A stretch of DNA of 64,000 nt. Source: an uncultured Candidatus Saccharibacteria bacterium. Its GTDB lineage: Bacteria; Patescibacteriota; Minisyncoccia; Phycocordibacterales; UBA5272. Positions 6,045-41,514 of the stretch are shown piece by piece. Made by a program: the position numbers and the translations under genes. The notes beneath the pieces were generated by a model. The model saw only the letters and a program-made list of their open reading frames with translations. It did no database searches and was not told the DNA's origin. The stretch is taken from positions 17,783 through 81,782 of the forward strand of contig CAYWEW010000001.1 of NCBI GenBank assembly GCA_964457775.1, read 5' to 3'. Position 1 is the stretch's first letter. Each line of letters starts with the position of its first letter.

Positions 6045-6815
6045 TTAAAGAACAGTAAGTATTTCTGCCTTCCCTTCTGTAATCAAAATCGTGTGTTCAA
6101 AATGAGCAGACTTTTTATGGTCCTTGGTAATGAAAGTATAGCCATCGTCTGCCAAATATACTTCATCAGTTCCATGATTAACCATCGGTTCAAGTGCAAG
6201 CACCATACCTGGAACAAGTTTAGGTCCTTTTATACCATCATCAAAGTTCGGCACATATGGTTCTTCATGAACTTTGTAACCGACACCGTGCCCTGATAAT
6301 ATTTTTACAATACCGTATTTTTTTGGTATTGATTTTTCAATGGCTTTTGAAATATCATTTACATAGTTTCCACCTCTAGCAGCATTTATTCCTGCCATGA
6401 GTGCCTCCTTGGTAACTCTCATCAACTCTTCATCTTCTTTACTAATCTTTCCAACAGCAACCGTGACAGCAGAATCAGATATCATTCCTTTATGTGTCAC
6501 TCCACCATCTAACCCAACTATGTCCCCCTCTTTTAGTACTCTATCCCCACCTATACCATGAACTACTTCATCATTAACTGAAATACAAATACTTCCAGGA
6601 TATGGATAGGAGGCTCCAAAAGGCTTGTAGTTAAGAAATGCCGGCTTATCCCCCATATCAGTAATCATTTTATAAACAAAATCATTTAAATAACCAGTTG
6701 TGACTCCCGGTTTTACTTCTTTTGAAACAGCTTGAAGCACCGAGGCTAACCTCTTACCACTTTCCCGTAGTTTTTTTATATCATTTTCATTTTTAAGTTT
6801 AATGTCGTATTTCAT
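6045..6815 (-). CDS. map: Methionine aminopeptidase type I
   Basis: Type I MetAP active-site motifs (VVHGIGGDRVLKEGDIVGLD, HGVGYKVHEEP, LALEPMVN, SAHFEHTILIT). Canonical position after adk. Confidence 0.9.
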   Translation of the reverse strand: MKYDIKLKNENDIKKLRESGKRLASVLQAVSKEVKPGVTTGYLNDFVYKMITDMGDKPAFLNYKPFGASYPYPGSICISVNDEVVHGIGGDRVLKEGDIVGLDGGVTHKGMISDSAVTVAVGKISKEDEELMRVTKEALMAGINAARGGNYVNDISKAIEKSIPKKYGIVKILSGHGVGYKVHEEPYVPNFDDGIKGPKLVPGMVLALEPMVNHGTDEVYLADDGYTFITKDHKKSAHFEHTILITEGKAEILTVL

Positions 6816-6817
6816 AA

Positions 6818-7420
6818 CTAATTATTTTTTAAGGAATTCAATTTCTGCATAATTTCATTTTGAACTTCTTCAATAGTTTGATTGCCATTTATACGTAAAA
6901 CGACATAGCGAGGGTCATTCAAATAAACATCAAGTGTTGGTAATACATCTGTCTCGAACCAATCCATACGATTAGTAACATCAGATTCTATCTTGTCATC
7001 TTCACGTCCACGTAAAGCGATGTGTTTTCTTGAAACACTTTCCGACGTTTCTAAATAAATTACAATTGGTTTCTGATATCCCAAAAAATTAATTGCACTA
7101 TGTAAAACATGAACCTCAAAAGGCTTTCTTGGTGCACCATCTAGGATAATAGTTTCTCCTCCTTTTAAATTATCAATAAAAAAGTTTGACCACCCCCAAA
7201 CTGCCAAAAATTCTGGTTGAAGAGCTCCTGTGTCATTAATATTTTTGGCCAATTTTGCTACATAATTATCTTTTGTAATAAAATCACGAAATCCACCACC
7301 TGTAGTGACATGAATAACTTTCTCCACACCTTGATTCATTAGAGTGCTCCTAAGTAATTCGGCTTGTGTTCCTTTCCCACTCCCAGAACGTCCAATCAAA
7401 ATAAAGAATTGTTTCTGCAT
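6818..7420 (-). CDS. adk: Adenylate kinase
   Basis: P-loop GRSGSGKGTQAELL and ILDGAPR motif. Sits between secY and map as in the spc operon. Confidence 0.85.
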   Translation of the reverse strand: MQKQFFILIGRSGSGKGTQAELLRSTLMNQGVEKVIHVTTGGGFRDFITKDNYVAKLAKNINDTGALQPEFLAVWGWSNFFIDNLKGGETIILDGAPRKPFEVHVLHSAINFLGYQKPIVIYLETSESVSRKHIALRGREDDKIESDVTNRMDWFETDVLPTLDVYLNDPRYVVLRINGNQTIEEVQNEIMQKLNSLKNN

Positions 7421-7561
7421 CTAACAATACTACCATAAAACATATACTTGTAACTAGTTATGCTTCCCTTGATAATAACCTTATTCTCTTTCTAATTCCT
7501 TGGAACAGTAGCACTAATATCTAAAATTGTTTTAAATTTATTAATCATAATTAGTTAATTA

Positions 7562-8413
7562 CTATCTAAAGCCAGACAATTTACCATCTCTTGTATACTC
7601 TGACTGAAGATCTGCTGACTGCTTGCTGCCGTCCTGATTAACTACTTCAATTCTAACTATGTCGAGTTTTTGTGAATAAGTAAAATCAGCATGAAGAGTG
7701 CTGTCATCGTAGCAAACATCTTCATTAAAACTGCCAATTTTACTATTCTTTTTTCTTTCAATACAGACATATGCCGTTCCTTGTGAACTGTCGTTATTGG
7801 GAACTACTTTAGCAACAAGAACCAGATCATGTCTCTCAAAAAAATTAATAGTTGCGTTATCAAATCTAGCTATTTTCAGTAAATTTTCTGGGCTTAATCT
7901 TGGCACTTTTGTTACACGTGCTGGTTCAACTGCAGAAATTCCATACTTTTCTGCTAACCTTGGTATTATTGTTTTTTTCGCTAGTTCAATAAATTCGTAT
8001 CTATTATTAAATTGTTTAAAAGTACAGGATGAATCCATAATATGTTCACCTGTTTCGGAATAAATGCCAAATTGTATTGATGCACATCTAAAAGTAAGAA
8101 CTGCTGGGCCAAATTTAACCAATGGAATATTTCTTTTTGCTAGCTCTTGATTAAAAAGGGTTTCGTTTTGTATGAGCATCCTCCTAAACTGCATCTCACT
8201 ACTTTCTTGAAATTCTACACCAGAGGTCTCTGCTAAAGCATTTTCTGATGTAACAATTTGTCCACCTGCAACAGCTGTACCAACAAGAATTGCTGTACTG
8301 ATTGTATTCCTAACGCGACCAAAAATATCTTTTTCTTTATTATCTGATTTTAATTGTGGTAAATTTTCTTCTATATTTTCCATATTATATATAAGTATAT
8401 ATCTATATAGCAA
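7562..8413 (-). CDS. Hypothetical protein with N-terminal TM anchor, inserted between secY and adk
   Basis: 283-aa ORF with no recognisable motif. The start codon is uncertain (MLYRY... or MENIEEN...). Confidence 0.45.
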   Translation of the reverse strand: MLYRYILIYNMENIEENLPQLKSDNKEKDIFGRVRNTISTAILVGTAVAGGQIVTSENALAETSGVEFQESSEMQFRRMLIQNETLFNQELAKRNIPLVKFGPAVLTFRCASIQFGIYSETGEHIMDSSCTFKQFNNRYEFIELAKKTIIPRLAEKYGISAVEPARVTKVPRLSPENLLKIARFDNATINFFERHDLVLVAKVVPNNDSSQGTAYVCIERKKNSKIGSFNEDVCYDDSTLHADFTYSQKLDIVRIEVVNQDGSKQSADLQSEYTRDGKLSGFR

Positions 8414-8519
8414 TGTTACCTAAATAAAATATAAATATTGATCAAATTTACAAAAAGACCAATAAACTTGGCCAATTTTGTTTATCTAATAAATAATTAC
8501 CGAAAAGACTAATCAATTA

Positions 8520-9788
8520 TTAATACTCCCTCATCGATAGCTGGGCGTCAATTTTCTTAATAACATCAAGAACAACAGACACTGCAATCAAAAGAGATGT
8601 ACCTCCAACCTGTATGGCTGTTAACCCAGTCATACCTTGAACAATAACTGGAAGTACTGCAACAAGACCCAAGAAAATTGCACCAAAGAAAGTAATACGT
8701 CCCAGAACATAACCAATGTATTCTGCGGTCTGAAGACCTGGACGAAAACCTGGAACGAAGGCTCCGTTCTTCTGAAGATTATCTGCTGTTTTTTCTGGAT
8801 CAAACATAACTGCTGTATAGAAGTATGTAAATGAAACAACCAGCAAGAAATAAGCACTTCCATATACCCACTGATTAGCTAAGAGTGTGTTAACTGTACG
8901 TGCAAATGACTGAAGTGATACTTGTGATGATGTTGCAAGCAATTGACCAATTAATTGTGGGAAAAGTAGTATAGAGATAGCAAAAATAATTGGAATAACA
9001 CCAGCTTGATTAAGACGAAGAGGAAGATATGTTGAAGCTCCAAGTGGGCTTCCTCCACCCATTCGTGACTGACGAGCGTAAGTAACAGGAACAGGACGTT
9101 CAGCTTCTGTAACATATACAACTCCAGCAATAACAACGAGAGATAGAACTAGTAGGCCGACAAGCATTGGGATTTGTGAGACATCAAATGTCACAAAAAA
9201 TTGACTAAGACTTTGTGGAATAGCTGCAACAATTCCTGCAAAGATAATAAGTGAGACTCCATTTCCAATACCTCTTTCATTAATTTGTTCTCCGAGCCAC
9301 ATCATGAGCATAGTTCCTGCAGTTACAATAATGATATTTGCAACCATAACTGATTGTGCAAGTTGTGGAATCACATTTTGTCTTTCAAGTAGAGTAATAA
9401 GTGCGAATCCTTGTAATATAGCAAGAGGAAGTGTTAACAGTCTTCCATACTGTACGAATCTACGACGCCCAGCATCCCCTTCTTCTTGATACATCTCTTT
9501 AATACGTGGTGAGAGTACTGTTGTTAATTGCATAATAATTGAGGCAGTAATATATGGACCAACTCCAAGCATTACTATTGAAAAAGATGAGATACCTCCT
9601 CCAGCAAAAACATTAAGCATACTCAAAAAACCGTTATTAGAAAGGTACTCTGCGAGATTTGAAGCATCAACCCCTGGAATTGGAATAACGGCTAATACGC
9701 GAGTAAGTAGCAAAATGCCAATAACAAAGAAAATGCGGTTACGTAGTGACCTGTCGGAAAATATTACCTTGATTGTTTTCATAATCAA
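8520..9788 (-). CDS. secY: Preprotein translocase subunit SecY
   Basis: 422 aa, 10-TM profile, SecY-like N-terminus (RIFFVIGILLLTRVLAVIPIPGVD). Confidence 0.9.
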   Translation of the reverse strand: MIMKTIKVIFSDRSLRNRIFFVIGILLLTRVLAVIPIPGVDASNLAEYLSNNGFLSMLNVFAGGGISSFSIVMLGVGPYITASIIMQLTTVLSPRIKEMYQEEGDAGRRRFVQYGRLLTLPLAILQGFALITLLERQNVIPQLAQSVMVANIIIVTAGTMLMMWLGEQINERGIGNGVSLIIFAGIVAAIPQSLSQFFVTFDVSQIPMLVGLLVLSLVVIAGVVYVTEAERPVPVTYARQSRMGGGSPLGASTYLPLRLNQAGVIPIIFAISILLFPQLIGQLLATSSQVSLQSFARTVNTLLANQWVYGSAYFLLVVSFTYFYTAVMFDPEKTADNLQKNGAFVPGFRPGLQTAEYIGYVLGRITFFGAIFLGLVAVLPVIVQGMTGLTAIQVGGTSLLIAVSVVLDVIKKIDAQLSMREY

Positions 9789-9867: not shown

Positions 9868-10512
9868 CTATTTGTACAAAATGTACACGTCACTTAATTT
9901 ACCTTTTGATTCCACTTGAAATGAATATTCTCCATTATAAATATTCCTAAAATCTGTAACTTTAAAGTTAATTTGTTGAGTTTTGTCTGGCATAGGATAC
10001 GCTGGGAGTATCATCTTCTTTGATATTTCTGCTCCCGCCGTTAAAGTTACAATATTAGAACCACTGTCGAAATTTTTTCCAGAAATAGAAACAACCATTG
10101 ATTTGCCATCTTCAGTAATTTTTATGTTATTTATTGTTGGCAAAATTTCTTTTGGTTTATTAGTAGTACTTTTTGAAGATGTTGATTGTGTATTATTGGT
10201 AATAGACAATACTTTTGTACTCGTTGAATTTTCACTAGTACTGGTGGAATAATTTATAATTTTACAATTATCTACACTTGGAATAACGCTCCCATCAGGA
10301 CATGTTTTATTTTTTGGTACACATATTTCATTTTCTAAATATTCATCATCTCCACATTCTATTTTGTCTGTTAATATTGGAGCTAATTCACTAGAAATAT
10401 CCCCATCTTTACTATTTTTCATCTTGTACAAAACATAACCAGAAAAAGCTATGGCTGCGACTGATAGCAACACCACCATTAATACTTTTAAAATATTAAA
10501 GAAATTTTTCAT
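9868..10512 (-). CDS. Hypothetical Ser/Thr-rich secreted/anchored protein inserted between rplO and secY
   Basis: 214 aa, N-terminal TM/signal (LKVLMVVLLSVAAIAFSGYVLY), Cys pairs, S/T/N-rich middle. Confidence 0.45.
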   Translation of the reverse strand: MKNFFNILKVLMVVLLSVAAIAFSGYVLYKMKNSKDGDISSELAPILTDKIECGDDEYLENEICVPKNKTCPDGSVIPSVDNCKIINYSTSTSENSTSTKVLSITNNTQSTSSKSTTNKPKEILPTINNIKITEDGKSMVVSISGKNFDSGSNIVTLTAGAEISKKMILPAYPMPDKTQQINFKVTDFRNIYNGEYSFQVESKGKLSDVYILYK

Positions 10513-13438: not shown

Positions 13439-13613
13439 TGTTGTTGTTTTTTAATTAAACCATCTGAATATCACGCGTTTGTTCGTAAATATTGATTAAA
13501 TATATACGTATTTACCCAAAACTTACGGAGATACACGGATTACAGACAGCTTCGTAATACTACCACAAAAGTCTATTTTAAGCTAGTAATTGTTAGTCAT
13601 AATTATAAAAAAC

Positions 13614-13650
13614 AAAAGCGACATCTTCGATGTCGCTTTTTGTTGTATTA
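13614..13650. terminator. Terminator hairpin; member of a recurring AAAAGCGACATCTT-n-GATGTCGCTTTT family
   Basis: aaaagcgacatc-ttcg-gatgtcgcttttt. Near-identical copies occur at 17309-17340 and 58440-58470. Confidence 0.55.
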
Positions 13651-13683: not shown

Positions 13684-16600
13684 CTACTGACATGTCTCAT
13701 CTCTCATCGCCTGTCTTGTAACTTCATAAACCATTCCGGTTGGAGCAAGACCTATAGTTGCTTGGTAACCTTTTACAGCTTCTATAGTTTTATCACCATA
13801 AAATCCTGAGACTTCATTTAATAGTCCTTTAGATTGTAGGAATTTTTGTAATGTAGTTACTGCTGATGATTCTGCTCCTCGGTGAAGGTTGCGTGATATG
13901 TAAATGCATGCTGTACTTGCACCTAATACTTTAGCATTACCATTACTTGAGCTACTAAGTGTAACGACTTTTACCAAAACCTGTGTGGATGTTGAACCAT
14001 TTACACCCCCACATTTCATCCCATAATAAATACTATTTGTTACTGGCTTAATTGTTAAAGTGCCACTTGTGGCCCTTGTAACTGGACCATATTGCCCTGC
14101 GTGACTAAAATCACAATAATCAACATTAGTTGACGACCATCTCAAGGTTGTTGATCCATTAAGTGGCACCTGTGTTGGGTTTACTGTCATAGTAATTGTT
14201 GGTATTTTTAATACTGCAGGAGCAACCACTGTTGGGGTTGGAGTCAATGTATAAGTTTTTATAGTACCAGTTCCTCTTAGGCACATATCTGCATTTTTTG
14301 GTCCACTTGCGTCACAATAACTAATACATGCACTATCTGTATCCGCTACTGATGTTGCTGGGTTTGGTGATGCAATCATATTTGTGGCAGTATTTGTTCC
14401 CCCTCTAAAAAGACCACAAGTTAGTCTTGCCGTCGTATTAGTGACAACTGGTGTTGGTGTTGTAACTACAGAACCATTAACTATAAACGAATTTATTGGG
14501 AAATTGTAGATTAAAGCACCATGATGTTGTATATTGCCACCGATAAAATCATTCCATTTAAACGATGCAGGTAAGGCAAGGGAAGAAATTAATTTTGGTG
14601 TAAGACCTGTCTGTATTGTACCTGATACAGTTGCAAATACAGAAAATGTAATTGATGTACCTGCCGGTATCTCAAACGGAGAACTAGACGTTATCAAAAT
14701 ATATGACTCTAAAACCGTTGCAGATAAACCTGCTATAGTTGTATTACCATTTGCAACTCGTGGTGAAGAAATTTTAAAGCCATTTATACCAATTGAGGAA
14801 ACATTAAGAATAGTTGATGTAAAACCTATTTTTCCATTTACATCAGCACTCACTGTGAATTCACCAATCTTATTTTCAGAACCAAGCACTAGTGAGCCCC
14901 CACCATTACTTAAAGTAACTGTTGGTTTTGAAGCAACAAGTGTCATAATATTTGAGGATACTGGTGTGTTATTTATTATTACTGAACCATTAGCATTAGT
15001 TACTTCAATGTAATTAAGTGTTAATTTAACATTAGATACGCCAGAAGTTAAACTTCCTCCTGATGTTGAATTCTGAAAACCACTAAACTTAACTGTAACA
15101 GGCACATCGACTCCTGTTGAAGAAACAGGTAAGCTTAGTCCTGTAGCTGTTACGTTACCATTCACAACTGGAGCCGTTACTCCTCCAACAGTAACACTAG
15201 TTACAGCATCATTGCCTGTAGTTGAGAATCTTAGTTCACGAACAGTTGCAGACGTGTTAAATTCGGAAGTTCTAAGTTTAAATGTTGCAATACCGAATGT
15301 TGAACCGCCAACTACGAATTGTGATACAGGCGATGATGACACTAGTGTTGGATTAGCAATAGAAACAGAAGAAGTGTTCATGGCTGAAACTGCTGCTGTA
15401 GCCTGACTTGAATTAGTTATTGTTGTTGGGGTTTGATTTGGGCTTGGAGATGTCGCCATAGTTGGTGCTGGAGCTGAAGCGGGTGGTATATTTGAGTAAA
15501 TTTCCTCCATTTCCCATGTACATCTAATTGATTTTGTAGGATTATTATAACTATTAGTTACACAGTTAGTATATGCGTATTCTTTTGAAACATTTTCCGT
15601 AGAAATAAATGGCGCTGCACTACCTCCCAAATAACCTTTGTATGAACCCAGTTGAGTGGTAGGTATTGTTGTTATTTCTTGTTGAACATTCAAACCATAA
15701 TTGTTACTATTCCCTGTTCGAGAATTAGTAATATTTATAGTATGAAAACCAGATGAAAGATTTCTTGTTAATGCAAAGTCGCTTTTCTTAATAGAAATAA
15801 TACTATCTGTAGGATTAAATTTACTAACCATAGAATTACCCATGCCGTCTATTTGCAAATAATTACCATCTAAGTTTAATCTAGCTCCAGAAATTGTTAT
15901 ATATCCACTTACATCAGTTGCTTTAGATATATATGGCGAAGTTTCACCGATGATAATTACACTATTACTCTTCGCGTAGTTTACATATGAAGAAACATCA
16001 ACGACTTTTTGTGTGTTGGTGTTAATATCAACATAAGAAAGGTTCGAAGGCCTAAAACTATAAGCGCCAGCAAATAATTCTTTGGTTGGAATTGTATTTC
16101 TAATATAAATTGTAGCTGTATCATTTGCCTTGATTATTAGATTAGTGTCATTGGAATAATTATAGTCAGAAATAAAGCTGGACACAGAGCCTCTGTATTT
16201 TACGCCATTAGAATTAATACGCACATTTTCATTATTAACAAATCCTCCTAAATTTGTTGCAACGCCATACACACCATACACATCTATATCTGAATTTCCA
16301 GCAGTGATTTTTACCTTTGCAACACCAACTAATTCTGTCTCTTTATTATTTAAGTCATAAGAAAGTTTAATTGATGGTGCTCCAACAAACTCAATAACGG
16401 GGTATATCGTATTTGAAGAACTTAGTGCGCTTTCGGTTGTAAATGATAGAAACTCTCCCTTAACATTTCCTTTTGAGCCACTTGCAACTATTCTATAGTA
16501 ATATGTTGTATTGGGAGCCAGTTTGTAAATATTTGTTGAGCAACTTACAACTGTGTTTCCATCGTAGATATATGAACATGGCGTTGCGTTCAATTGTCCG

Positions 16601-17253
16601 TACATTGATGTCCCCCATTCAAACCAAGCTTTGGGTTTTAAAGTTCCATTATTAGGTTCAACATATCCAGCGATAAGAGCACTGTTATTTGTATAGTTAG
16701 CTCCAGTTGTTTTAACAGACACAAAAGAAAGGGTCTCTGATGTATTAGTGCGACACGGTTCATAAGAAACAGCACCATTACAATTATATATAGTTTCAAC
16801 AGGATTGTTTACATTAGGAGTTTTTGTTGACGGAACATCAACTGAAACAGTTTTAGTGTTTACTGAAGAAGCACTTCTACAGCTTATCTCCCTTATCTTC
16901 GCTCGTGTCACAGGACCAACATAACCAGAAGTTATGAACCCGTTCTTTTTTTGAAAATATTTAACTGCTTTAAGAGTAGAAGGACCGAACACGCCATTAG
17001 GTTCTGCTGTAAGAAACCCTTGGTCTTGAAGGAAATATTGTAAATCAGATACTTCTCCGTTAGTATTAGAATCTTTTGATTTCTTATAAGTTAAGTTATA
17101 AGATAAATCTGTACATCCCTCACTTGCTTGGTCTGGGGCTTCATCACCAACAATACTTGTTGTAACAGGAACCGCTATTGATGTTGCTGAAACAATTGAT
17201 AAAGAAAAACAAATTCCACTGATAATAGCACCTACTGTTAAATATTTTTTCAT
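13684..17253 (-). CDS. Giant secreted/surface protein (1189 aa) with two peptidoglycan-binding (PG_binding_1-like) domains
   Basis: Signal peptide (MKKYLTVGAIISGICFSLSIVSA). PGBD-like DLQYFLQDQGFLTAEPNGVFGPSTLKAVKYFQKKNGF near the N-terminus and LQKFLQSKGLLN...GDKTIEAVKGYQATIGL at the C-terminus. Long T/S/N-rich beta-type middle. Confidence 0.7.
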   Translation of the reverse strand: MKKYLTVGAIISGICFSLSIVSATSIAVPVTTSIVGDEAPDQASEGCTDLSYNLTYKKSKDSNTNGEVSDLQYFLQDQGFLTAEPNGVFGPSTLKAVKYFQKKNGFITSGYVGPVTRAKIREISCRSASSVNTKTVSVDVPSTKTPNVNNPVETIYNCNGAVSYEPCRTNTSETLSFVSVKTTGANYTNNSALIAGYVEPNNGTLKPKAWFEWGTSMYGQLNATPCSYIYDGNTVVSCSTNIYKLAPNTTYYYRIVASGSKGNVKGEFLSFTTESALSSSNTIYPVIEFVGAPSIKLSYDLNNKETELVGVAKVKITAGNSDIDVYGVYGVATNLGGFVNNENVRINSNGVKYRGSVSSFISDYNYSNDTNLIIKANDTATIYIRNTIPTKELFAGAYSFRPSNLSYVDINTNTQKVVDVSSYVNYAKSNSVIIIGETSPYISKATDVSGYITISGARLNLDGNYLQIDGMGNSMVSKFNPTDSIISIKKSDFALTRNLSSGFHTINITNSRTGNSNNYGLNVQQEITTIPTTQLGSYKGYLGGSAAPFISTENVSKEYAYTNCVTNSYNNPTKSIRCTWEMEEIYSNIPPASAPAPTMATSPSPNQTPTTITNSSQATAAVSAMNTSSVSIANPTLVSSSPVSQFVVGGSTFGIATFKLRTSEFNTSATVRELRFSTTGNDAVTSVTVGGVTAPVVNGNVTATGLSLPVSSTGVDVPVTVKFSGFQNSTSGGSLTSGVSNVKLTLNYIEVTNANGSVIINNTPVSSNIMTLVASKPTVTLSNGGGSLVLGSENKIGEFTVSADVNGKIGFTSTILNVSSIGINGFKISSPRVANGNTTIAGLSATVLESYILITSSSPFEIPAGTSITFSVFATVSGTIQTGLTPKLISSLALPASFKWNDFIGGNIQHHGALIYNFPINSFIVNGSVVTTPTPVVTNTTARLTCGLFRGGTNTATNMIASPNPATSVADTDSACISYCDASGPKNADMCLRGTGTIKTYTLTPTPTVVAPAVLKIPTITMTVNPTQVPLNGSTTLRWSSTNVDYCDFSHAGQYGPVTRATSGTLTIKPVTNSIYYGMKCGGVNGSTSTQVLVKVVTLSSSSNGNAKVLGASTACIYISRNLHRGAESSAVTTLQKFLQSKGLLNEVSGFYGDKTIEAVKGYQATIGLAPTGMVYEVTRQAMRDETCQ

Positions 17254-17308
17254 ATACTTATTAGTGTAACCTATATATACTCATAAGTCCTTGTTGGAGT
17301 GTTAATAG

Positions 17309-17340
17309 CAAAAGCGACATCTTAAGATGTCGCTTTTGTA
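17309..17340. terminator. Terminator hairpin, identical copy of the 58440 hairpin
   Basis: aaaagcgacatc-ttaa-gatgtcgcttttgtattt. Confidence 0.55.
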
Positions 17341-29592: not shown

Positions 29593-29610
29593 TGGGAGTG
29601 CCGGATTCGA

Positions 29611-30267
29611 CTACTCCCCTTTGTGAGGATCGTCCGGCAGCATGCAGACCATGTTGCCGTCTTGCGGATGACCTTGCCATGCGAGCTTAGCCCAGACTTT
29701 GCCATCCTTACAGCGCGATGGAACTGCACTTGCAACCTTTTCGGGTTGGGTACTGTTGCCAGCGCGATGCGAGTCGTCCGGTGCCATGCAGACCATGTTG
29801 CCGTCTTGCGGATGACCTGGCCATGCGAGCTTAGCCCAGACTTTTCCATCACTACAACGGTTCTGCGGTTGGGTCATGACTTGTTGGACTTGTTGTTGTT
29901 CGCTTTCGCAGTATTTGTTACCTGCGAATGCTCCGACAAGCCCACCGATGATGGCACCGATTCCACGGTTTTCCTCACCACCAATCAGTGCACCACCTAC
30001 AGCACCAGCTGCACCGCCGACAAGTTCACACTTACCGATGTTGGCTCCTGCCTGCATCACTGGTGCAAAATTCCCTTGCGGTTGCGTAATCAGGCGCCCA
30101 TCCCAGCATTCCTGAGGTTGGCCGAGTTTTTGTGGTGCAGGAACGCACCCTGGAGGAAGACGATACGAGTTATTCGCACCGACTCCCATACCCATGCCAC
30201 CTGTTGCACATCCTCCGAGGAGGAGTGTGGCAACAGCGAGAAGTACTGCAAACAGTTTGTTTTTCAT
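29611..30267 (-). CDS. Lipoprotein with glycine-zipper (SlyB / 17-kDa-antigen-like) segment and two tandem 45-aa Cys-containing repeats; GC-rich
   Basis: Signal plus lipobox-like LLLGGC. Glycine zipper VGGAAGAVGGALIGG...GAIIGGLVGAFAG. Repeats C(S/K)DGKVWAKLAW(P/Q)GHPQDGNMVCM(A/L)PDD. Confidence 0.6.
   Translation of the reverse strand: MKNKLFAVLLAVATLLLGGCATGGMGMGVGANNSYRLPPGCVPAPQKLGQPQECWDGRLITQPQGNFAPVMQAGANIGKCELVGGAAGAVGGALIGGEENRGIGAIIGGLVGAFAGNKYCESEQQQVQQVMTQPQNRCSDGKVWAKLAWPGHPQDGNMVCMAPDDSHRAGNSTQPEKVASAVPSRCKDGKVWAKLAWQGHPQDGNMVCMLPDDPHKGE
29636..29905. repeat. Two tandem 135-bp repeats inside the lipoprotein gene
   Basis: cgtccggcagcatgcagaccatgttgccgtcttgcggatgacc... at 29641 and again at 29775 (about 90% identity). 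Confidence 0.7.
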
Positions 30268-30915: not shown

Positions 30916-31470
30916 TTATGCTTTTTTGAACGGGATGCCGAGTAGTTCAAAGAATCGAGTCGCCTCCTCTTTTGTCTTTGCCGTTGTTCCAAGAGTAATA
31001 GCCATACCGAACACATCCTTTAATTCTTCATCGTGAATTTCTGGGAAGATAGTATGTTCCTTGATGCCAAATGTCATATTACCAATATTGTCTACTGATG
31101 TACGATTAAGACCACGGAAGTCCTTTGTACGTGGAAGTGAAACATTGAGTACCTTATCCAAGAAACCAAACATGCGAGCACCGCGAAGTGTTACTGCAAC
31201 ACCGATTGGATCCCCTTCACGAGTTTTGAATGACGCAACTGACATCTTCGCTTTACGAATAGTTGCCTTTTGTCCTGTAATCTTTGAAAGACGATCGAGA
31301 ACTAAGTCGTTAAATTTTTTATCACGCTTCATTGCTGAGCCCGTAGCTACAGAAATGTTAACCTTAACAAGTCTTGGGGCTGCCATTATATTCTTATAAC
31401 CAAATTCTTTTGCAAGAACTGTATACGCTTGCTTTTGCTTATCTTGTACACTCATTATTTTTTCTGCCAT
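30916..31470 (-). CDS. rplE: 50S ribosomal protein L5, detached from the rest of the cluster
   Basis: 184 aa, L5 motifs (MAAPRLVKVNISVATGSA..., GVAVTLRGARMFGFLDKV). Confidence 0.9.
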   Translation of the reverse strand: MAEKIMSVQDKQKQAYTVLAKEFGYKNIMAAPRLVKVNISVATGSAMKRDKKFNDLVLDRLSKITGQKATIRKAKMSVASFKTREGDPIGVAVTLRGARMFGFLDKVLNVSLPRTKDFRGLNRTSVDNIGNMTFGIKEHTIFPEIHDEELKDVFGMAITLGTTAKTKEEATRFFELLGIPFKKA

Positions 31471-31647
31471 ATATTTATTCTAAGCACGATTGGTCCTTGA
31501 GGATATACCTTTCCGGACGTTATACGTCGCTTATTTGTAGAAATTTTCCTTTCTACATTACTGTTAGTAGACTTATACTCTACTACAAAATGGACTATTT
31601 GTAAACAACAAAAATCGACCACTTTTGCTATTTAAATATGCATTATT

Positions 31648-32097
31648 TTATTTCTTTTGAGCTTTCTTAATAACCCCCAACCTAAACTCTGAATATATAG
31701 CATATCTATTAGCAAAAAATGGATTCTCTTTTTCCAATATCTTATATGCAAAAGAAACAATTTCTTTAGTTGAAACATATTTACTTCTTAATTTCATAAT
31801 TTCATCAATTATTTCTCTAGTTAATCTCTTAGCCTTAGCTGCATCGTCTCCCTGGTCACGAATTTTTCCCCCTATTACTGCATTAAAAATAGAAACAAAA
31901 AGCTTTTCATAAACGAATTTCTTTCGGACTAAATTCCTTTTAACAACAAACAATGAGTCGTGTGAGAAATATTCTGTTGTTGTATATATTTCTCCACATT
32001 TCAAACACTTTCTTCTCCGCCAAACCCCTACCTCATCAGTTGTTTTTCGAGAATTAATGACTTCAGTTTTTATACTTTTACAAAATGGACATTTCAT
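31648..32097 (-). CDS. nrdR: Transcriptional repressor NrdR (zinc ribbon + ATP-cone)
   Basis: MKCPFCKS...TEVINSRKT...RRRKCLKCGEIYTTTE N-terminal zinc ribbon; 149 aa. Confidence 0.85.
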   Translation of the reverse strand: MKCPFCKSIKTEVINSRKTTDEVGVWRRRKCLKCGEIYTTTEYFSHDSLFVVKRNLVRKKFVYEKLFVSIFNAVIGGKIRDQGDDAAKAKRLTREIIDEIMKLRSKYVSTKEIVSFAYKILEKENPFFANRYAIYSEFRLGVIKKAQKK

Positions 32098-32226
32098 GTA
32101 TACATATTGTCATAAAAATATATAAATATCAATAGATATGTATACATACAGCCATATCAATTATTTTGATAACAAATACACTGATATGTGTAGTTCTTTT
32201 ATTAATCACAAATAAGGAGAATCAAA

Positions 32227-33318
32227 ATGAATAAAGATATTAAAAGAATCGTCATCACTGGTGGCCCCTGCTCTGGTAAAACTACAGGCATGAGCTATCT
32301 TTCACAAAAACTTTCCGACTTAGGTTATCATGTTATTGTTGTCCCGGAATATGCAACTGAAGTCATAAATGGAGGTGTTACCCCTAGTAAAAATATTTCT
32401 ATTTATGACTTTCAAGAAAACATCGTTCTTGGCCAAATAGAAAGAGAAAAACGTTATCTTTCTTTTGCAAAATGTCTTGAAAGTGAAAAAGTTATTATTA
32501 TTTTCGACCGTGGGACCCTTGATTCGAAAGCGTATATCGATGAAGAATCTTGGTTAGTGATGTTGGAAGAAAATAGTTTAAATGAAGTCAAACTTCGTGA
32601 TGAAAGTTATGACGCGGTTATTCATATGCGTACTGTTGCATTAGGTAAAGAAGAGTTTTATACCAAATTGAACAACAGCGCTAGATTTGAAAATCCAGAA
32701 GAAGCAAGAGTGGCTGACGAAAAAACTTTATCCTCATGGATTGGACACACACATCTACGTGTTATTGATAATCGTGATGATTTTTCTTCCAAAATACATC
32801 GAGTTCTTGCTGAAGTACTTCATGTGCTAGGTGAGCCAATACCTCTTGAGATTGAAAGGAAATACTTGGTGAATGAATCTTTTGATTGGAAAAATATTCC
32901 TGTCGCCTACCAAGAAATAGATATTGAGCAAGCATACTTGGTCATAGGTGGAAGAATCAGAAAAAGAGGTCAAGGTGATGTCTTTATTTATACCGAGACC
33001 CATAAAGAAGACATTGGTGGAAGTTTCATTCGCACTGAAGTTGAGAAGAGGATTTCTTCTCGTGAATATCACGATAAGTTAAAAAATATTGTCCCTGGAA
33101 GTAGTATTATCAAGAAAAAAAGAATTTGCTTTGTCTATAATGAGCAATACTTTGAACTTGATTACTTCATCGATATAAAACAAAATCCTTATCTTGAAAT
33201 AGAACTCACCGACAAAAATCACGAAATTAATCTTCCTCCTTGGATTCCAGTTATTAGGGATGTGACGGAAGAAGTGGGTTTTAGTAATCGTGAACTTGCT
33301 CTTAAGTCTTGTGGTTAA
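32227..33318 (+). CDS. Fusion protein: N-terminal P-loop NTPase (AAA_28/NadR-like) + C-terminal CYTH (triphosphate tunnel metalloenzyme) domain
   Basis: Walker A ITGGPCSGKTT and Walker-B-like IIIFDRGTLD in the first ~190 aa. The second half begins with the CYTH signature IEIERKYLV. Confidence 0.55.
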   Translation: MNKDIKRIVITGGPCSGKTTGMSYLSQKLSDLGYHVIVVPEYATEVINGGVTPSKNISIYDFQENIVLGQIEREKRYLSFAKCLESEKVIIIFDRGTLDSKAYIDEESWLVMLEENSLNEVKLRDESYDAVIHMRTVALGKEEFYTKLNNSARFENPEEARVADEKTLSSWIGHTHLRVIDNRDDFSSKIHRVLAEVLHVLGEPIPLEIERKYLVNESFDWKNIPVAYQEIDIEQAYLVIGGRIRKRGQGDVFIYTETHKEDIGGSFIRTEVEKRISSREYHDKLKNIVPGSSIIKKKRICFVYNEQYFELDYFIDIKQNPYLEIELTDKNHEINLPPWIPVIRDVTEEVGFSNRELALKSCG

Positions 33319-33323
33319 AACTA

Positions 33324-33351
33324 AAAAACGGACACTTAGGTGTCCGTTTTT
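33324..33351 (+). terminator. Terminator hairpin
   Basis: aaaaaacggacac-ttag-gtgtccgtttttg. Confidence 0.55.
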
Positions 33352-33522
33352 GATCAGCAAATTATAAATCACCAAATTTATTTCATGGAAGAAGCTTTAC
33401 TATAAAATATTCTGCTTTCTTTAGTTATTTAAGAATGACTTACAATCAAAATTATACGTGATTTTTTACTTAACTATCGTTTTGTAAAAACATATTATAA
33501 TAATTGTTATATTAAAAATAAA

Positions 33523-34425
33523 TTAACCTCCACCACTACCTCCACCAACATCGCCAGGACCTTCATAATTAGGATCTCCTAATATTATTAAATCAAAAAA
33601 ACTATCAGACATTCCTTGGTGTGTATTTACCCCAGATTTTATACTAGTTACACCATCCGCTTTATCTCCAGAACCCCTAGGAGAATAAAATCCATGATTA
33701 TAGTATTTCATATACCAAGAATAGCTGCCTGCTCTAGGGTCTAAAACTTTCCAAACACGAGCTGGACCAGCCCCACCCCCACAAGCATTCATGTCATTTG
33801 CCCACATTACATAGCGAATTTTTTGGCCACAGTTTTGTGTTGTTGGTGGTTTAGTTTGTGTACATAAAGAATCTGATATGGTTTGCCCCAAAGAATTAAC
33901 ACAAGGGATGACTCTTGTTTGTGCTAATAATTGAGTGTAAGACTTTGTAACTCTTTGACCACAACCATCCGAACCGTTATAAACAATTTCATTATGAGTA
34001 GTAGTGTTCACGACTGTACTACATGACCCCCATGTAGCGGTAGTACTCCAACCAGCGTCACAAATAACGTTACCATTAATGTCTGTAATAAGACCAGCCT
34101 TACAATTAATAGGAAAACCTCCAGAAGAAACACTCTTAGAAACTTTTGAGTCCACATAACTCTTAGTAACCAAAGTAGAAGGATCATCTGCATCCTGTGT
34201 AAGAGCAGAGTATCCTTTATTCCCTCCTGTAATAGTAAAAGGGGATCTTACTTTAAAAGGTCCCAATTTTTCTTGTAAAACAGTACCTACGTTCACAGGG
34301 GCACTTACATTATTAGCTGGAGGTATTCCTGCTGGAGCCCCCGTCCATGCATAAGCAACAGTTCCAAGTACAACAGAAAGCACAAAAATAACTGATGCTT
34401 TATTAAAGGAATCTACTTTATTCAT
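33523..34425 (-). CDS. Secreted hypothetical protein, paralog 1 (300 aa), Gly-rich C-terminus
   Basis: N-terminus MNKVDSFNKASVIFVLSVVLGTVAYAWTGAPAGIPPANNV is shared with the neighbouring gene. Multiple Cys. Ends GDVGGGSGGG. Confidence 0.5.
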   Translation of the reverse strand: MNKVDSFNKASVIFVLSVVLGTVAYAWTGAPAGIPPANNVSAPVNVGTVLQEKLGPFKVRSPFTITGGNKGYSALTQDADDPSTLVTKSYVDSKVSKSVSSGGFPINCKAGLITDINGNVICDAGWSTTATWGSCSTVVNTTTHNEIVYNGSDGCGQRVTKSYTQLLAQTRVIPCVNSLGQTISDSLCTQTKPPTTQNCGQKIRYVMWANDMNACGGGAGPARVWKVLDPRAGSYSWYMKYYNHGFYSPRGSGDKADGVTSIKSGVNTHQGMSDSFFDLIILGDPNYEGPGDVGGGSGGG

Positions 34426-34631
34426 ATTATCTTAATTTTAATTGTTTTAAATTCTAATGTAAAGGAACAAAAGGTAAAAAGGACACCGCCATTTGTCGTT
34501 CTTGATCAGCAAATTATAAATCACCAAATTTATTTCACAGAAGAAGCTTTACTATAAAAATATTCTGCTTTCTTTTGGTCTTTCAAAAATTAATTTATAA
34601 TAAATGTTATATTTACTTTTTGTTACTTAAA

Positions 34632-35609
34632 TTAATAAGCTCCGTATAAATTGTAACAAACGTTCTTAACAGCTGTTGGATTTCCACATGCACCATATGC
34701 ATAACAACTTGCTACATATCCCATTTTTTGATCAGGTGTAGGTTTAGCTCTGTAACAATCAAAACATTCTCCAGAACCACCACAAATATCAGTACGAACC
34801 ACATAAGTATACAAATGTGTACAAACATCATTAAGAACATAATATTGTGCGCCACACACTGTACAATTTCTATTTGTATAAGAACCGCCAAGAACGCCAT
34901 TTGTACATAGGCGACTCTCACTAACAGAGGCGCAAGTTTGACCAGAAGTTACCGCAGTTGTTTGGTATGCTGTTACTGATTGACCACTTGAAACTGTTGT
35001 ATTCCAAGGAGATGGACACGACGCACCCGGCGTTACCGTACAATTTCTATTAGTATAAGACCCGCTTAGCACAGTATTAGTACATAGACGATTCTGACTT
35101 ACTGACTCACAAGTTTGACCATAAGGAACAGCAGCTGTTTGATATGTGGTTACTGATTGACCGCTAGCAATTGTGCCACCCCAAGGCACAGTACAGGATG
35201 TTGGACTCAAAACTTTACAAACAATATTACCATTAAAATCTGTACCTAGAACGTCACAACCCGAAAGAGCGCTAAAGTTAATACCATCTATACCACTTGT
35301 ACCAATACCTAAAGATGAGGTAGATGTCCAGGAAGCATTTCCTTCGGCATCAGAAGTTAATATTTTACCTTCTCCTGCACCCGGAGCAAAGTTAAAAGCA
35401 GTATATGCTTTTAATAAACCGTCTATACCAAGTGACCCTGCCTTAAGTTGAATTGTATTACCTACGTTTACTGGTGCGTCAACATTATTAGCAGGTGGTG
35501 TTCCTGCTGGTGCCCCTGTCCAAGCATAAGCAACAGTTCCAAGTACAACAGATAGCGCAAAAATAACTGATGCTTTATTAAAGGAATCTACCTTGACTGA
35601 TTTGTTCAT
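34632..35609 (-). CDS. Secreted hypothetical protein, paralog 2 (~325 aa), with internal ~55-aa Cys-containing repeat
   Basis: N-terminus MNKSVKVDSFNKASVIFALSVVLGTVAYAWTGAPAG. Repeats CT(V)PW..TxxSGQSVTxYQTxAVxxGQTCxSVSxxRLCTNxVLxGSYTNRNCTV x2. Start set at the internal ATG 35609. Confidence 0.5.
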   Translation of the reverse strand: MNKSVKVDSFNKASVIFALSVVLGTVAYAWTGAPAGTPPANNVDAPVNVGNTIQLKAGSLGIDGLLKAYTAFNFAPGAGEGKILTSDAEGNASWTSTSSLGIGTSGIDGINFSALSGCDVLGTDFNGNIVCKVLSPTSCTVPWGGTIASGQSVTTYQTAAVPYGQTCESVSQNRLCTNTVLSGSYTNRNCTVTPGASCPSPWNTTVSSGQSVTAYQTTAVTSGQTCASVSESRLCTNGVLGGSYTNRNCTVCGAQYYVLNDVCTHLYTYVVRTDICGGSGECFDCYRAKPTPDQKMGYVASCYAYGACGNPTAVKNVCYNLYGAY

Positions 35610-35660
35610 TATATAAGTATACCTTTTTCTGAGGTGTTTAGAAGTGTACAAGATAAATAA

Positions 35661-35687
35661 AAAACAGACACTTTCGTGTCTGATTTT
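35661..35687 (-). terminator. Terminator hairpin immediately downstream of rplX, ending the S10-to-L24 block
   Basis: aaaacagacac-tttc-gtgtctgatttt. Confidence 0.55.
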
Positions 35688-39800: not shown

Positions 39801-39806
39801 ATACGT

Positions 39807-40472
39807 TTATTTATTTACTTTAGAAGAAAGATAAGCAATTGTTTCTTCTGGATTAGCAATAACCAAGTATCTTGTATTAGCTAAATCAAGAGGGTTAAGA
39901 TCATCCATATTATGAAGAGTCATGTATGGAAGATTACGGAATGCGCGCTTTGTTACATCCTCACCTTTCTTAATTGTCATATACACATTGTTTGGCTTCT
40001 TGTAACAAAGAGTCTTGAAACCTTCGATAGTAGTAAGACCTTTCATAGCCATATCTGCATCTTTTGTCTTACCGGTTTGAGTAGGAACAGAATCAACGAA
40101 AATAACTTTACCCGCTTTAACCTTTGCAGACAAAAGTGAGAATAGTGCAGCAACTTTCATTCCCTTAGGAATAGTCTTCTTATAATCCTTATCATTTCTA
40201 GGACCAAAAGTTACACCTCCACCTTTCCATAATGGTGACTGTGCAGAACCATGACGAGCACGTCCAGAACCTTTTTGTGCCCATGGCTTCTTGTGAGTTC
40301 CACGAACTTCAGCTCTGTTTTTTGTGTGAGCAGTACCAGCGCGTCTATTAGACGCTTGTGAATAAAGAACTTGTGATACGAGATCAGCATTCCACTTAGC
40401 ACCAAAAATATTCTCTGGTACTTCGAGTGACTTTGCTATCTTTCCTTCCATTGTATAGACGTTTACTTTCAT
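39807..40472 (-). CDS. rplD: 50S ribosomal protein L4
   Basis: 221 aa; GTAHTKNRAEVRGTHKKPWAQKGSGRARHGS motif. Confidence 0.9.
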   Translation of the reverse strand: MKVNVYTMEGKIAKSLEVPENIFGAKWNADLVSQVLYSQASNRRAGTAHTKNRAEVRGTHKKPWAQKGSGRARHGSAQSPLWKGGGVTFGPRNDKDYKKTIPKGMKVAALFSLLSAKVKAGKVIFVDSVPTQTGKTKDADMAMKGLTTIEGFKTLCYKKPNNVYMTIKKGEDVTKRAFRNLPYMTLHNMDDLNPLDLANTRYLVIANPEETIAYLSSKVNK

Positions 40473-40478
40473 ATAATT

Positions 40479-41087
40479 TTACTTAGTTGTCTTGATTTCC
40501 ACAAGTGTTCCACGCTTTCCTGCAACCGCACCCTTAAGAAGGATGATTCCATTCTCAAAATCAACATCAAGAATTGTTACATTCTTTTGTGTGATACGAT
40601 CACTTCCCATACGACCCGCCATTCTCTTTCCCTTGAAAACTCTCTGTGGGCCTGTTGCTCCAATAGAACCAATTTCACGCATTGAGTGCTTCTGACCATG
40701 CTGATGCCAACCTCCGTGCATACCATGACGCTTCATTGGACCTTGAAAACCTTTACCTTTTGAAACACTAGATACTGTTACAATATCTCCTTTGTTGAAA
40801 ACATCACATGCAATTGTAGCTCCAAGTGACAAGTCCCCTGGTGCTGTACGGAATTCCTTAGATACTTTATGAGGAGTTCCCTTAAAGTGTCCAAGTAACG
40901 CCTTTGACATACGCTCCTTCTTTTGTTCCCCTTGTCCAACTTGTATAGCATCATATCCATCAGTTGCTACAGTCTTAAGAGCGGTCACTGTTAAGGGTGT
41001 TGCCTTAAGAATTGTTGCAGGGTGAACTTTTCCGTCTTCGGAAAAGAATTCTGTCATATGTTGTTTTGTTGCGAGTGTGAATTTCAT
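40479..41087 (-). CDS. rplC: 50S ribosomal protein L3
   Basis: 202 aa; VSSVSKGKGFQGPMKRHGMHGGWHQHGQ motif. Confidence 0.9.
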   Translation of the reverse strand: MKFTLATKQHMTEFFSEDGKVHPATILKATPLTVTALKTVATDGYDAIQVGQGEQKKERMSKALLGHFKGTPHKVSKEFRTAPGDLSLGATIACDVFNKGDIVTVSSVSKGKGFQGPMKRHGMHGGWHQHGQKHSMREIGSIGATGPQRVFKGKRMAGRMGSDRITQKNVTILDVDFENGIILLKGAVAGKRGTLVEIKTTK

Positions 41088-41127
41088 GGTGTTTTCTTGT
41101 GTCTGATAGATTATCTGACTATTTTAT

Positions 41128-41514
41128 CTATGCCATCTTTACATCTATATCAACTCCAGATGGAAGTGATAGATTTGTAAGAGCTTCAATTAGCTTTGCA
41201 TTTGGATTTACGATGTCAACGAGACGCTTATGCACTCTCATTTCGAACTGTTCACGTGCATCTTTATAAATAAATGATGAACGGTTAACTGTATAACGCT
41301 TGATTTCTGTTGGAAGCGGAATTGGTCCAAGAATTATAGCCTCGAAACGACGTGCAGTGTCAATAATCTGCTTCACGGAAGCATCAAGAACTTTACTTTC
41401 ATATGCGCGTACACGAATACGAAGCTTCTGGGTGTCTTGAGCTTTAGATGGCTTTGTTACTTTTTTTACAGCTTTTTTAGTTGCTGTTTTTGTAGCTGTT
41501 TCGGTTGCTGTCAT
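41128..41514 (-). CDS. rpsJ: 30S ribosomal protein S10 with ~28-aa Thr/Lys-rich N-terminal extension
   Basis: QKLRIRVRAYESKVLDASVKQIIDTARRFEAIILGPIPLPTEIKRYTVNRS is the S10 core. Confidence 0.9.
   Translation of the reverse strand: MTATETATKTATKKAVKKVTKPSKAQDTQKLRIRVRAYESKVLDASVKQIIDTARRFEAIILGPIPLPTEIKRYTVNRSSFIYKDAREQFEMRVHKRLVDIVNPNAKLIEALTNLSLPSGVDIDVKMA

Follow-up and report, generated by a model that had tools for sequence, protein, structure and literature searches.

In this work, we have analysed the S10-spc ribosomal protein gene cluster carried by a 64,000-nt stretch of contig CAYWEW010000001.1 (GenBank assembly GCA_964457775.1, from an uncultured bacterium of the Patescibacteriota), hereafter the window, whose first letter is position 1. 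On the minus strand, the cluster lies in the units EF-Tu-S10...L24, L5, S14...L15, secY and adk-map, with ribosomal protein genes named here after their products. Our results show that the split cluster is an old, clade-wide and lineage-typical trait, and that the pattern of the window matches that of its clade exactly. Probably, the cluster was divided long ago into separately transcribed units, and the spacers between them then became permissive for gene turnover. We also propose, as a plausible idea that we would place just short of probable, that this lineage dismantled the spc operon by relocating its autoregulation, so that an independent S8 operator would head the S14-S8-L6-L18-S5-L15 operon, and the orphan L5 gene would have gained a leader of new fold, possibly with L5 as its ligand.

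Breakpoints of the cluster in the window and its relatives

Genes were assigned by Pfam scans of all sizeable open reading frames (ORFs) of the window. Every ribosomal protein gene was confirmed in the minus-strand block order given by the original prediction (Table 1), and so were the solitary L5 followed by a 17.5-kb insert with two peptidoglycan-binding proteins, fpg, TauE, tRNA-Lys, polA, tsaE, a repeat protein and a GC-rich islet, and the succession S14...L15, 214-aa Ser/Thr-rich ORF, secY, 283-aa ORF and adk-map. From S10 to map, the relative order is that of the canonical S10-spc-alpha cluster of E. coli and B. subtilis. Contiguity is broken in L24-L5-S14 and in L15-secY-adk, with 4257 bp between L24 and L5 (gap A) and 17477 bp between L5 and S14 (gap B), and the same breaks are found in relatives.

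These relatives comprise 80 loci obtained by a search with the L5 protein, one genome per species, with L5 identities from 92% down to 54%. Nearly all are titled Patescibacteria ('Paceibacterota', 'Nomurabacteria', 'Parcubacteria' or the mislabelled 'Saccharibacteria') and several only 'bacterium'; no species representative identical to the window is among them. Relative loci and contigs compared with the window carry the labels L001-L090. The 34 species-level genomes whose L5 is at least 75% identical form the close clade and the other 46 genomes the distant set. Junctions were surveyed by tblastn of 45 window proteins onto the loci, a spacer of more than 500 bp being counted as a break.

In the close clade, L24 and L5 are never tightly linked: their spacer exceeds 500 bp in 21 of 30 genomes, reaches 6.1 kb and measures at least 208 bp between aligned segments. 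L5 and S14 are more than 500 bp apart in 24 of 25 genomes, and the remaining one has L5 relocated downstream of L15. Breaks also occur between L15 and secY (4/14) and between secY and adk (5/10); among the other 18 junctions only adk-map is ever broken, once (1/9). No junction inside the S10-L24 block exceeds 500 bp in the 34 close relatives, EF-Tu and S10 are tightly linked in all relatives, and so are all genes inside the S14-L15 block. The survey found no close relative with contiguous L5 and S14, that is, with an empty site. In the distant set, the L24-L5 junction is tight (median 112 bp), L5-S14 is broken in 17 of 26 genomes and L2-S19 in 15 of 22, and about a dozen genomes (L035-L045, L059, L068; the isolated-L5 group) have no other cluster gene within 10 kb of L5. 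L5 behaves as a movable single-gene unit in two loci, lying after L15 in L016 (L24-PG465-S14...L15-L5, where PG465 is the 465-aa PG_binding_1 protein of gap B) and 326 bp upstream of EF-Tu in L038. As its relatives are broken at the same points, which have long been fixed, the arrangement of the window is lineage-typical and not recent.

Table 1. Features of the split cluster, listed in the direction of transcription of the ribosomal protein genes
Feature	Position	Strand	Basis or remark
tuf (EF-Tu)	41561..42754	-	Pfam GTP_EFTU and D2/D3 domains; directly upstream of S10, heads the first block
Block 1: S10-L3-L4-L23-L2-S19-L22-S3-L16-S17-L14-L24	35728..41514	-	Pfam
Terminator-like hairpin and T-run	35665..35682	-	Hairpin scan; 46 nt past L24 stop
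Gap A (4.3 kb), gene span	31648..35651	mixed	Pfam
sec339	34632-35651	-	Secreted protein, 339 aa
sec300	33523-34425	-	Secreted protein, 300 aa
AAA_28 ATPase	32227-33318	+	Pfam AAA_28, residues 7-187
nrdR	31648-32097	-	Pfam
Candidate L5 promoter	31577..31605	-	TTTACA, 17 nt, TAGAGT; upstream TRTRG box
Candidate L5 leader RNA	31478..31537	-	Ends 7 nt before L5 ATG
rplE (L5), solitary	30916..31470	-	Pfam Ribosomal_L5 and L5_C
Terminator-like hairpin after L5	30749..30776	-	11-bp stem; second one at 30666-30684
Gap B (17.5 kb), gene span	13684..30267	mixed	Pfam and tRNA search; order from L5: glycine-zipper lipoprotein, Ala/Pro-rich ORF (GC-rich islet), DUF11 repeat protein, tsaE, polA, 209-aa ORF, 362-aa ORF (+), tRNA-Lys, TauE, 188-aa ORF, fpg (+), PG_binding_1 protein of 465 aa (PG465), PG_binding_1 protein of 1189 aa
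Predicted terminator hairpin after 1189-aa gene	13614..13640	-	12-bp stem and GTTTTTT; upstream of S14 promoter
Predicted S14-operon promoter	13557..13565	-	Extended -10 box TGGTAGTAT
Candidate S14-operon leader RNA	13457..13552	-	Ends 18 nt before S14 ATG
Putative A642-equivalent adenine	13469	-
Block 3: S14-S8-L6-L18-S5-L15	10627..13438	-	Pfam; S8 at 12857-13240
Predicted terminator hairpin after L15	10550..10584	-	16-bp stem
214-aa Ser/Thr-rich ORF	9868..10512	-	Between L15 and secY; without Pfam family
secY	8520..9788	-	Pfam SecY
Weak terminator-like hairpin after secY	8457-8473	-
283-aa hypothetical ORF	7562..8413	-	Between secY and adk; without Pfam family
adk extended -10 box	7427-7435	-	TGGTAGTAT, 15 nt upstream of start codon
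adk-map	6045..7420	-	Pfam ADK, Peptidase_M24

Gene content of the spacers

Gap A holds nrdR, an AAA ATPase and two paralogous secreted proteins, as had been predicted, but the CYTH half ascribed to the ATPase was not borne out: Pfam recognises AAA_28 only, and the C-terminal part has no Pfam match at E<=1. The secreted paralogues sec339 and sec300 share 47% identity over their N-terminal ~140 aa (E=5e-28). They originated by a tandem duplication of ~1.15 kb in the region 33345-35651 that took in the downstream spacers, which are 95% identical; the two proteins are near-identical over the first ~50 residues (KVDSFNKASVIF.LSVVLGTVAYAWTGAPAG.PPANNV.APVNVG) and the remainder has diverged. In relatives, the same gap contains nrdR in three genomes and AAA_28 in two, including L034, the most divergent member of the clade.

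In gap B, the constant resident is PG465: each of the 26 close relatives with an examinable L5-S14 interval has its orthologue there, in unchanged position and orientation. Over both gaps, the one other frequent resident is a DUF2177 membrane protein, found in 12. When 199 ORFs from both gaps of all loci were clustered, more than 100 were singletons, many of them large surface proteins, and the clusters were few and small. The order seen in the window recurs in part in three loci: L086 (~75-93% nucleotide identity) reads polA-209aa-362aa-tRNA-Lys-TauE-x-fpg-PG465-...-S14, L090 has fpg-PG465-S14, and L002, the nearest species (L5 92% identical), has L5-...-glycine-zipper-gc266-DUF11, gc266 being the Ala/Pro-rich ORF. 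Outside the two gaps, the 214-aa ORF has weak homologues (34-41% identity) at the same place in L086 and L087, and the 283-aa ORF a 67% identical one at the same place in L086. The 4.3-kb and 17.5-kb fillings of the window are thus the state of its own subclade and not private to it; at clade level, the contents of the gaps are hypervariable and their sites fixed.

Could the gaps have arisen by recent, repeated insertion of islands or mobile elements into an intact operon of this genome? The original prediction had pointed to repeated insertion, and several features agree with it: the genes in the gaps are unrelated and come with terminators of their own, the gap contents vary widely between relatives, the GC content rises to 0.43-0.50 at 28.5-30.3 kb against ~0.36, and a tRNA-Lys gene lies inside gap B, tRNA genes being classic integration targets. 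However, the same breakpoints are found in all 34 species of the close clade and beyond it, and the order of the inserts, tRNA-Lys included, is common to L086, and the order also to L002 and L090, which speaks against a recent origin. No integrase, transposase or recombinase domain was found by Pfam among the gap ORFs, and no direct repeats flank either gap, the repeats present being intragenic or due to local tandem duplication. The GC-rich stretch encodes Gly/Ala/Pro-rich proteins, so its composition is at least partly explained by them, and an island is unlikely to carry genes that are essential and present once, as polA and tsaE are. We therefore consider recent insertion into this genome very improbable. 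What stands of the earlier claim applies at clade level, where contents turn over rapidly at fixed sites; for this genome it is not supported, the breakpoints being shared by relatives.

The GC-rich islet (28500-30400) consists of three small units, and every one of them has a sigma-70 promoter close to consensus (scores of 12/12 at 28522-28550 and of 11/12 at 29490-29518 and 30344-30371). Its products, partly conserved in L002, include a glycine-zipper lipoprotein with an internal 144-nt repeat and an Ala/Pro/Lys-rich membrane protein.

Soundness of the assembly

The source is evidently a metagenome assembly, and a chimeric contig that joins fragments of ribosomal protein clusters would produce breaks of this kind, a worry that the original prediction had raised. 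Three junctions (L24-sec339, DUF11-tsaE and PG465-PG1189-S14) have no independent identical contig, which counts in favour of an artefact. In exact-protein look-ups, tsaE and sec339 are not on record, and for L24 only contigs of 388-658 bp that end just past the gene were returned; exact L5, L24, S14 and PG465 proteins were found on short contigs of several public assemblies. Elsewhere the contig is matched by Logan contigs from other runs with 100% identity: L001 covers 29789-33385 (3597 bp) and spans AAA_28-nrdR-L5-glycine-zipper, and L084 and L085 cover 17314-19772 (2459 bp) and span fpg-PG465. The context on the S14 side is reproduced in L086 and L087, more than 30 independent assemblies from different studies have the same breaks, and composition (GC ~0.36) and GC skew (negative throughout, with no switch of sign) are continuous along the window. 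The arrangement is real and not a mis-assembly; an artefact of assembly or binning is extremely improbable.

Predicted terminators and promoters

Terminator-like sites occur in the window at about twice the shuffle expectation (20 versus 9.0+/-2.6 and 21 versus 11.5+/-3.1), and the terminator that had been proposed after L24 is present as a hairpin with a T-run. A generic scan for sigma-70-like promoters was not above chance (76 versus 70+/-8 and 67 versus 56+/-8), so the evidence for promoters must rest on conservation. Taking as criterion a perfect stem of 9 bp or more, no farther than 150 nt from the stop codon, hairpins follow L24 in 21 of 30 close genomes, L5 in 13 of 34, L15 in 12 of 18 and secY in 5 of 12; 15 other ribosomal genes of these genomes have none, and one hairpin lies after map (1/7). 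In distant genomes, hairpins follow L5 (23/42), L2 (8/22), S10 (4/17) and secY (7/19), matching the breakpoints of those genomes. The L24 hairpin is kept in seven of the eight relatives that have an L24-L5 spacer of 124-273 nt and no inserted gene.

The box of the candidate L5 promoter, (A/G)T(A/G)GTAGAGT, is of the extended -10 type and at least 90% conserved in 33 aligned regions upstream of L5. Across relatives the putative S14 promoter reads TTGACx, 16-17 nt, TGnTAGTAT; a TGnTAnnAT-type box lies at most 45 nt upstream of the S14 leader described below in 38 of 43 relatives, many of them with a canonical TTGACx -35 element. With strong hairpins located right at the breaks, and a conserved box and leader ahead of both L5 and S14, each piece has the appearance of a transcription unit of its own, as the original prediction had supposed.

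A different possibility is that the resident genes, among them PG465, nrdR and polA, are coupled to ribosome synthesis by read-through, which would make an enlarged growth-rate regulon. The constant place and orientation of PG465, the location of nearly all insert genes on the strand of the ribosomal genes and the presence of hairpins after L5 in only a minority of close relatives would fit such coupling. Against it, all other gap genes are variable or unique, strong hairpins together with a dedicated promoter and leader are predicted upstream of S14, PG465, which is secreted and binds the wall, is unconnected with translation, and a same-strand bias is expected from co-orientation with replication. 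We regard an enlarged regulon as improbable, and separate transcription of the pieces as the better account of the spacers.

A TGGTA(G/T)TAT box is also found 15-16 nt upstream of the start codons of adk and tsaE (26477-26485, minus strand), which suggests that these mRNAs may be leaderless or near-leaderless. A similar extended -10 box lies 18 nt upstream of tRNA-Lys.

Candidate leader RNA upstream of S14

Upstream of both L5 and S14, sequence conservation goes well past neutral expectation, and each of these regions contains a candidate leader RNA. That of the S14 operon, of ~85-95 nt, is predicted to form a 7-bp proximal helix, an internal loop (5'-UAAU/5'-AUAUU) and a long distal helix. 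In the alignment of 38 sequences (A3) from which the covariance model R2 was built, 94.5% of the cells are paired and 16 of the 20 pairs show compensatory change; none of 500 shuffles reached the observed values, slid controls gave at most 52% paired cells, and the covariation score was 0.52 against at most 0.14 in slid controls. The fold of the window sequence has a z-score of -4.9. R2 matches 44 sequences (E 8e-18 to 5e-6), one per locus and always just upstream of S14. Both leader and promoter box are also found in L055, L057 and L061, where S14 directly follows L5 at a distance of only ~180 nt, and hence both exist without an inserted gene. In Rfam 15 the leader matches no family, even at E<=10, and it has no detectable homology to the E. 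coli S8-interacting RNA.

What might bind this RNA? According to the structural description in PMC4176348, the S8 site in helix 21 of 16S ribosomal RNA (rRNA) is a helix with a conserved odd-numbered internal loop, in which the base triples A595.(A596-U644) and (G597-C643).U641 are formed; in Thermus, the 595/596/644 triple is G.(C-G). We confirmed the E. coli helix 21 sequence (GUUAAGUCAG...CUGAUACUGG) in all 5426 E. coli genomes. The leader loop, 5'-[U]AA[U]C / 5'-G[AUA]UU, has the same 4+5 nt layout as the E. coli loop, 5'-[A595]A596 G597[U598]C599 / 5'-G639[A640 U641 A642]C643 U644, with 8 of 11 bases identical and an A-U pair in place of G597-C643. The equivalents of G639, A640, A642, 597, 598, 599 and 643 are invariant in the 38 sequences, and the 596-644 equivalent covaries (AU 35, GC 2, GU 1), which the alternative register of RNAalifold leaves unexplained. 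S8 is encoded by the second gene of the S14 operon, and the Ser-Thr and Tyr residues to which contact with RNA is ascribed are retained in it. From this likeness, seen at the level of sequence, we infer that the architecture of the S14 leader is that of an S8 binding site, and that the leader may serve as an autoregulatory operator bound by S8; if functional, it would be an invention independent of the E. coli operator.

The leaders could instead be real RNA structures that are not operators of ribosomal proteins at all, acting as stabilising stem-loops, processing sites or attenuators, and the likeness to the S8 site would then be coincidental. Several observations lean this way and weigh against an S8 operator. 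The equivalent of A595 in the leader is U, and when R2 was run on E. coli 16S rRNA, helix 21 was only the third match and not significant (E=5). The distance from leader to S14 start ranges from 24 to 170 nt among relatives, which speaks against simple occlusion of the ribosome binding site, and the sequences upstream of the ribosomal-gene starts (13439-13456, 31471-31477) are G-poor and have no Shine-Dalgarno sequence. The L5 leader, for its part, fits no known protein site. On the other side, a loop of invariant nucleotides within freely covarying helices is the mark of a site for a particular ligand. The positions that do not vary (A640, A642 and the 597-643 pair) are the ones recognised by S8, covariation of the 596-644 equivalent follows that in rRNA, the operon encodes S8, and in the 1.3 Mb searched for specificity both motifs are found only upstream of L5 or S14. 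Non-operator leaders are, in our judgement, rather unlikely, though to be taken seriously, and an S8 operator upstream of S14 is the reading that we prefer.

In E. coli, S8 is described as acting at the start of rplE, L5 and the later genes being controlled by translational coupling (PMC3616713). The candidate operator of the present lineage lies one gene later, so L5 would be left outside S8 control, which is consistent with a separate leader wherever L5 is orphaned.

In many relatives the segment between leader and ATG consists of 40-150 nt of short tandem repeats of the CTAAC/ACTAAT type (L003, L006, L009, L013, L016, L024, L046, L052, L064-L066, L069). Neither the window nor any of the fetched loci contains a 16S gene, and a metagenome pattern scan for 16S with a leader-like core (TAATC...GATATT...GTAGNGGTRRAAT) returned 120 stretches that are coding sequence and not rRNA.

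Candidate leader RNA upstream of L5

The L5 leader is predicted to consist of a helix P1 (AAGCGACG/CGUGCUU, with one bulge), an internal loop UAUAAC/YAAU in which GUA and AAUC are invariant, and a hairpin P2 of variable length. In its alignment (A2, folded with RNAalifold and used for covariance model R1), 95% of the cells are paired, against at most 37% in slid controls, and 6 of 10 pairs show compensatory change; the fold z-score in the window is -2.5 to -3.4. R1 matches the window and 32 close-clade loci, always just upstream of L5. A variant precedes L5 in the isolated-L5 group (L035-L045, L059 and L068), where P2 is deleted in some genomes and P1 closed by UAUACAAAU; here too P1 covaries (C-G to U-A, with different outer pairs). 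Genomes with adjacent L24 and L5 lack the element, the sequence upstream of L5 being L24 coding sequence there.

No family of Rfam 15 matches the L5 leader. L5 itself would be the most economical guess for its ligand. The leader was also compared with a strand-swapped S8 site, in which YAAU and AUA fit, but the Watson-Crick pairs would be A.A and A.C, and this was rejected; a likeness to loop C of 5S rRNA (CCGAAC versus CYAAUC) is too weak to claim. Sorting the L5 leaders by adjacency with regular expressions proved too crude, since it missed P1 variants and mislabelled clade members with short spacers.

Proposed history of the cluster

We propose that in this lineage, of the Paceibacteria or 'Nomurabacteria' type of the candidate phyla radiation, the S10-spc cluster gave way to the units [EF-Tu-S10...L24], [L5], [S14...L15], [secY] and [adk-map] in three steps. 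An internal promoter and operator upstream of S14 would first have created the boundary between L5 and S14, a state for which L055, L057 and L061 provide support. L24 would then have gained a terminator, and L5 a promoter and leader, before the close clade and the isolated-L5 group parted, as the short-spacer genomes L012, L014, L015, L021, L022, L028 and L029 suggest. Finally, genes would have accumulated or been exchanged, or small units moved (L016, L038 and the isolated-L5 genomes), a step shown by the variable contents of the gaps. The terminator-promoter spacers may thus have served as permissive sites at which unrelated genes were gained, lost, duplicated or translocated. Most of these genes code for surface proteins that evolve quickly, and there are housekeeping genes among them too, for example polA, tsaE, fpg, nrdR and tRNA-Lys. 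L5, once unlinked from the S8-controlled unit, would have acquired a leader of its own.

Some points detract from this history. The order of events, split first and filled later, is deduced from present-day states. Terminators, promoters and leaders are predictions; the hairpin after L5 in the window has a weak T-tail, and the generic promoter scan given above was at chance. The relative loci span 10 kb on each side of L5, and gaps of up to 10 kb could be measured in them. To these must be added the three junctions seen in a single assembly. An ancient division followed by turnover at the spacers nevertheless remains, as stated at the outset, the account that we hold to be probable.

Other features of the window

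L29 is absent between L16 and S17, whose genes overlap (36704-36717), in the window and in every close-clade locus (L002-L034), and is present at this place in 25 more distant relatives; tblastn of the 64-kb window with the L29 proteins of distant relatives gave nothing convincing (best E=0.004 over 13 residues). L30 is also absent from the window, the S5-L15 spacer being only 6 nt. The upstream neighbour of tuf is a divergent cmk, and the str operon is thus unattached. The alpha operon (infA-L36-S13-S11-S4-rpoA-L17) does not follow map, and a scan of the larger ORFs elsewhere in the window revealed none of its genes. Instead, DUF5684, a 221-aa ORF and a 904-aa ATPase similar to TrwB/DUF8128, the coupling protein of type IV secretion systems, lie 3' of map (2030-6000, minus strand). 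In six relatives (L007, L046, L050, L057, L058, L074), those with both genes detected, an ATPase of this kind lies 63-833 nt past map, and L086 and L087 are like the window in having DUF5684 and a further ORF in between.

S5 (11194-11976, minus strand) has an N-terminal extension of ~95 aa, for a total of 260 aa with Pfam domains from residue 96, and S10 (41128-41514, minus strand) an extension of ~31 aa. The L2-S19 spacer (38502-38612, 111 nt) contains a promoter-like TTTACT, 16 nt, TATAAT with TG (38519-38546), and in the 15 distant relatives with a break at this junction it carries 1-4.8 kb of inserted genes. Elsewhere in the window there is a tRNA-Ile with anticodon UAU (50468-50541, plus strand), an uncommon bacterial route to AUA, for which most bacteria rely on a lysidine-modified CAU tRNA. 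smpB (53570-54001, plus strand) is directly followed by transfer-messenger RNA (54152-54541; 89 bits with Rfam), which ARAGORN did not report. A 180-aa ORF (61122-61664, minus strand) has a weak His-Me finger match (homing-endonuclease zinc loop).

Comparison with known systems and implications

We found no description of the split cluster or of either leader in the literature, in which coverage is incomplete and absence is not proof. To our knowledge, no orphan L5 has been reported in the work on Leptospira or on Asgard archaea, nor do we know, short of an exhaustive search, of a described leader associated with L5. Lineage-stable departures from the canonical cluster, as in the lineage of the window, are reported for Leptospira (PMC2481283) and Asgard archaea (PMC10833476). 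Multigene insertions in the canonical cluster, as treated in the corresponding sections of Brandis 2021 (PMC8046335) and Brandis et al. 2019 (PMC6735719), relax selection for linkage; the insertions described there for Gammaproteobacteria and Bacilli lie between operons (rpoBC/str and str/S10), whereas those of the window cut inside the spc unit. The window further differs from the canonical cluster in its single-gene L5 unit, the lack of L29 and L30, the separation of EF-Tu from the str genes and the absence of the alpha operon after map.

As portrayed in the passages of PMC3616713 and PMC4176348 that deal with it, the S8 operator of the E. coli spc operon (Cerretti 1988, Merianos 2004) is, like the S14 leader, a helix-internal loop-helix mimic of helix 21 in the mRNA of the operon that encodes S8, and the two would have in common the odd-numbered loop, the A640/U641/A642 equivalents and the pairs 596-644 and 597-643. 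The E. coli operator, reportedly restricted to Gammaproteobacteria, overlaps the rplE start codon inside the operon (PMC3616713, PMC4176348); in contrast, the S14 leader would stand at the 5' end of the rpsN mRNA, with a promoter to itself and no coding overlap. In general design both leaders of the window resemble the known leaders of ribosomal protein genes, outlined in Fu et al. 2013 (PMC3616713) and Eckert and Weinberg 2020 (PMC7247131) as conserved, covarying structures upstream of these genes that are often rRNA mimics. A term search in the 2020 survey (PMC7247131) returned no uS8, uL5, uS14, Parcubacteria or candidate phyla.

What does the split cluster mean for this lineage and for its study? 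The L24-L5-S14 adjacency is treated as near-universal, and it underlies the use of syntenic ribosomal proteins in metagenome binning and tree building; in a lineage whose L5 regularly lies kilobases off or in another part of the genome, L5 will be lost or mis-paired by pipelines in which 16 ribosomal proteins are concatenated and expected on a single scaffold. The cluster would be a case of ancient operon erosion at fixed points, once every piece had been equipped with a promoter, a terminator and a feedback element. Should they be confirmed, the S8-like leader would represent a second S8 operator, of independent origin and from outside the Gammaproteobacteria, and the L5 leader a new RNA-protein recognition motif; both are short and easily tested in vitro. 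They would also, if true, be the first ribosomal protein leaders described for the candidate phyla radiation. In that case, the lineage would provide a natural experiment in which self-regulating modules, and not co-transcription, keep ribosomal genes coordinated, and in which terminator-promoter spacers turn into insertion hot spots once the operon has become modular.

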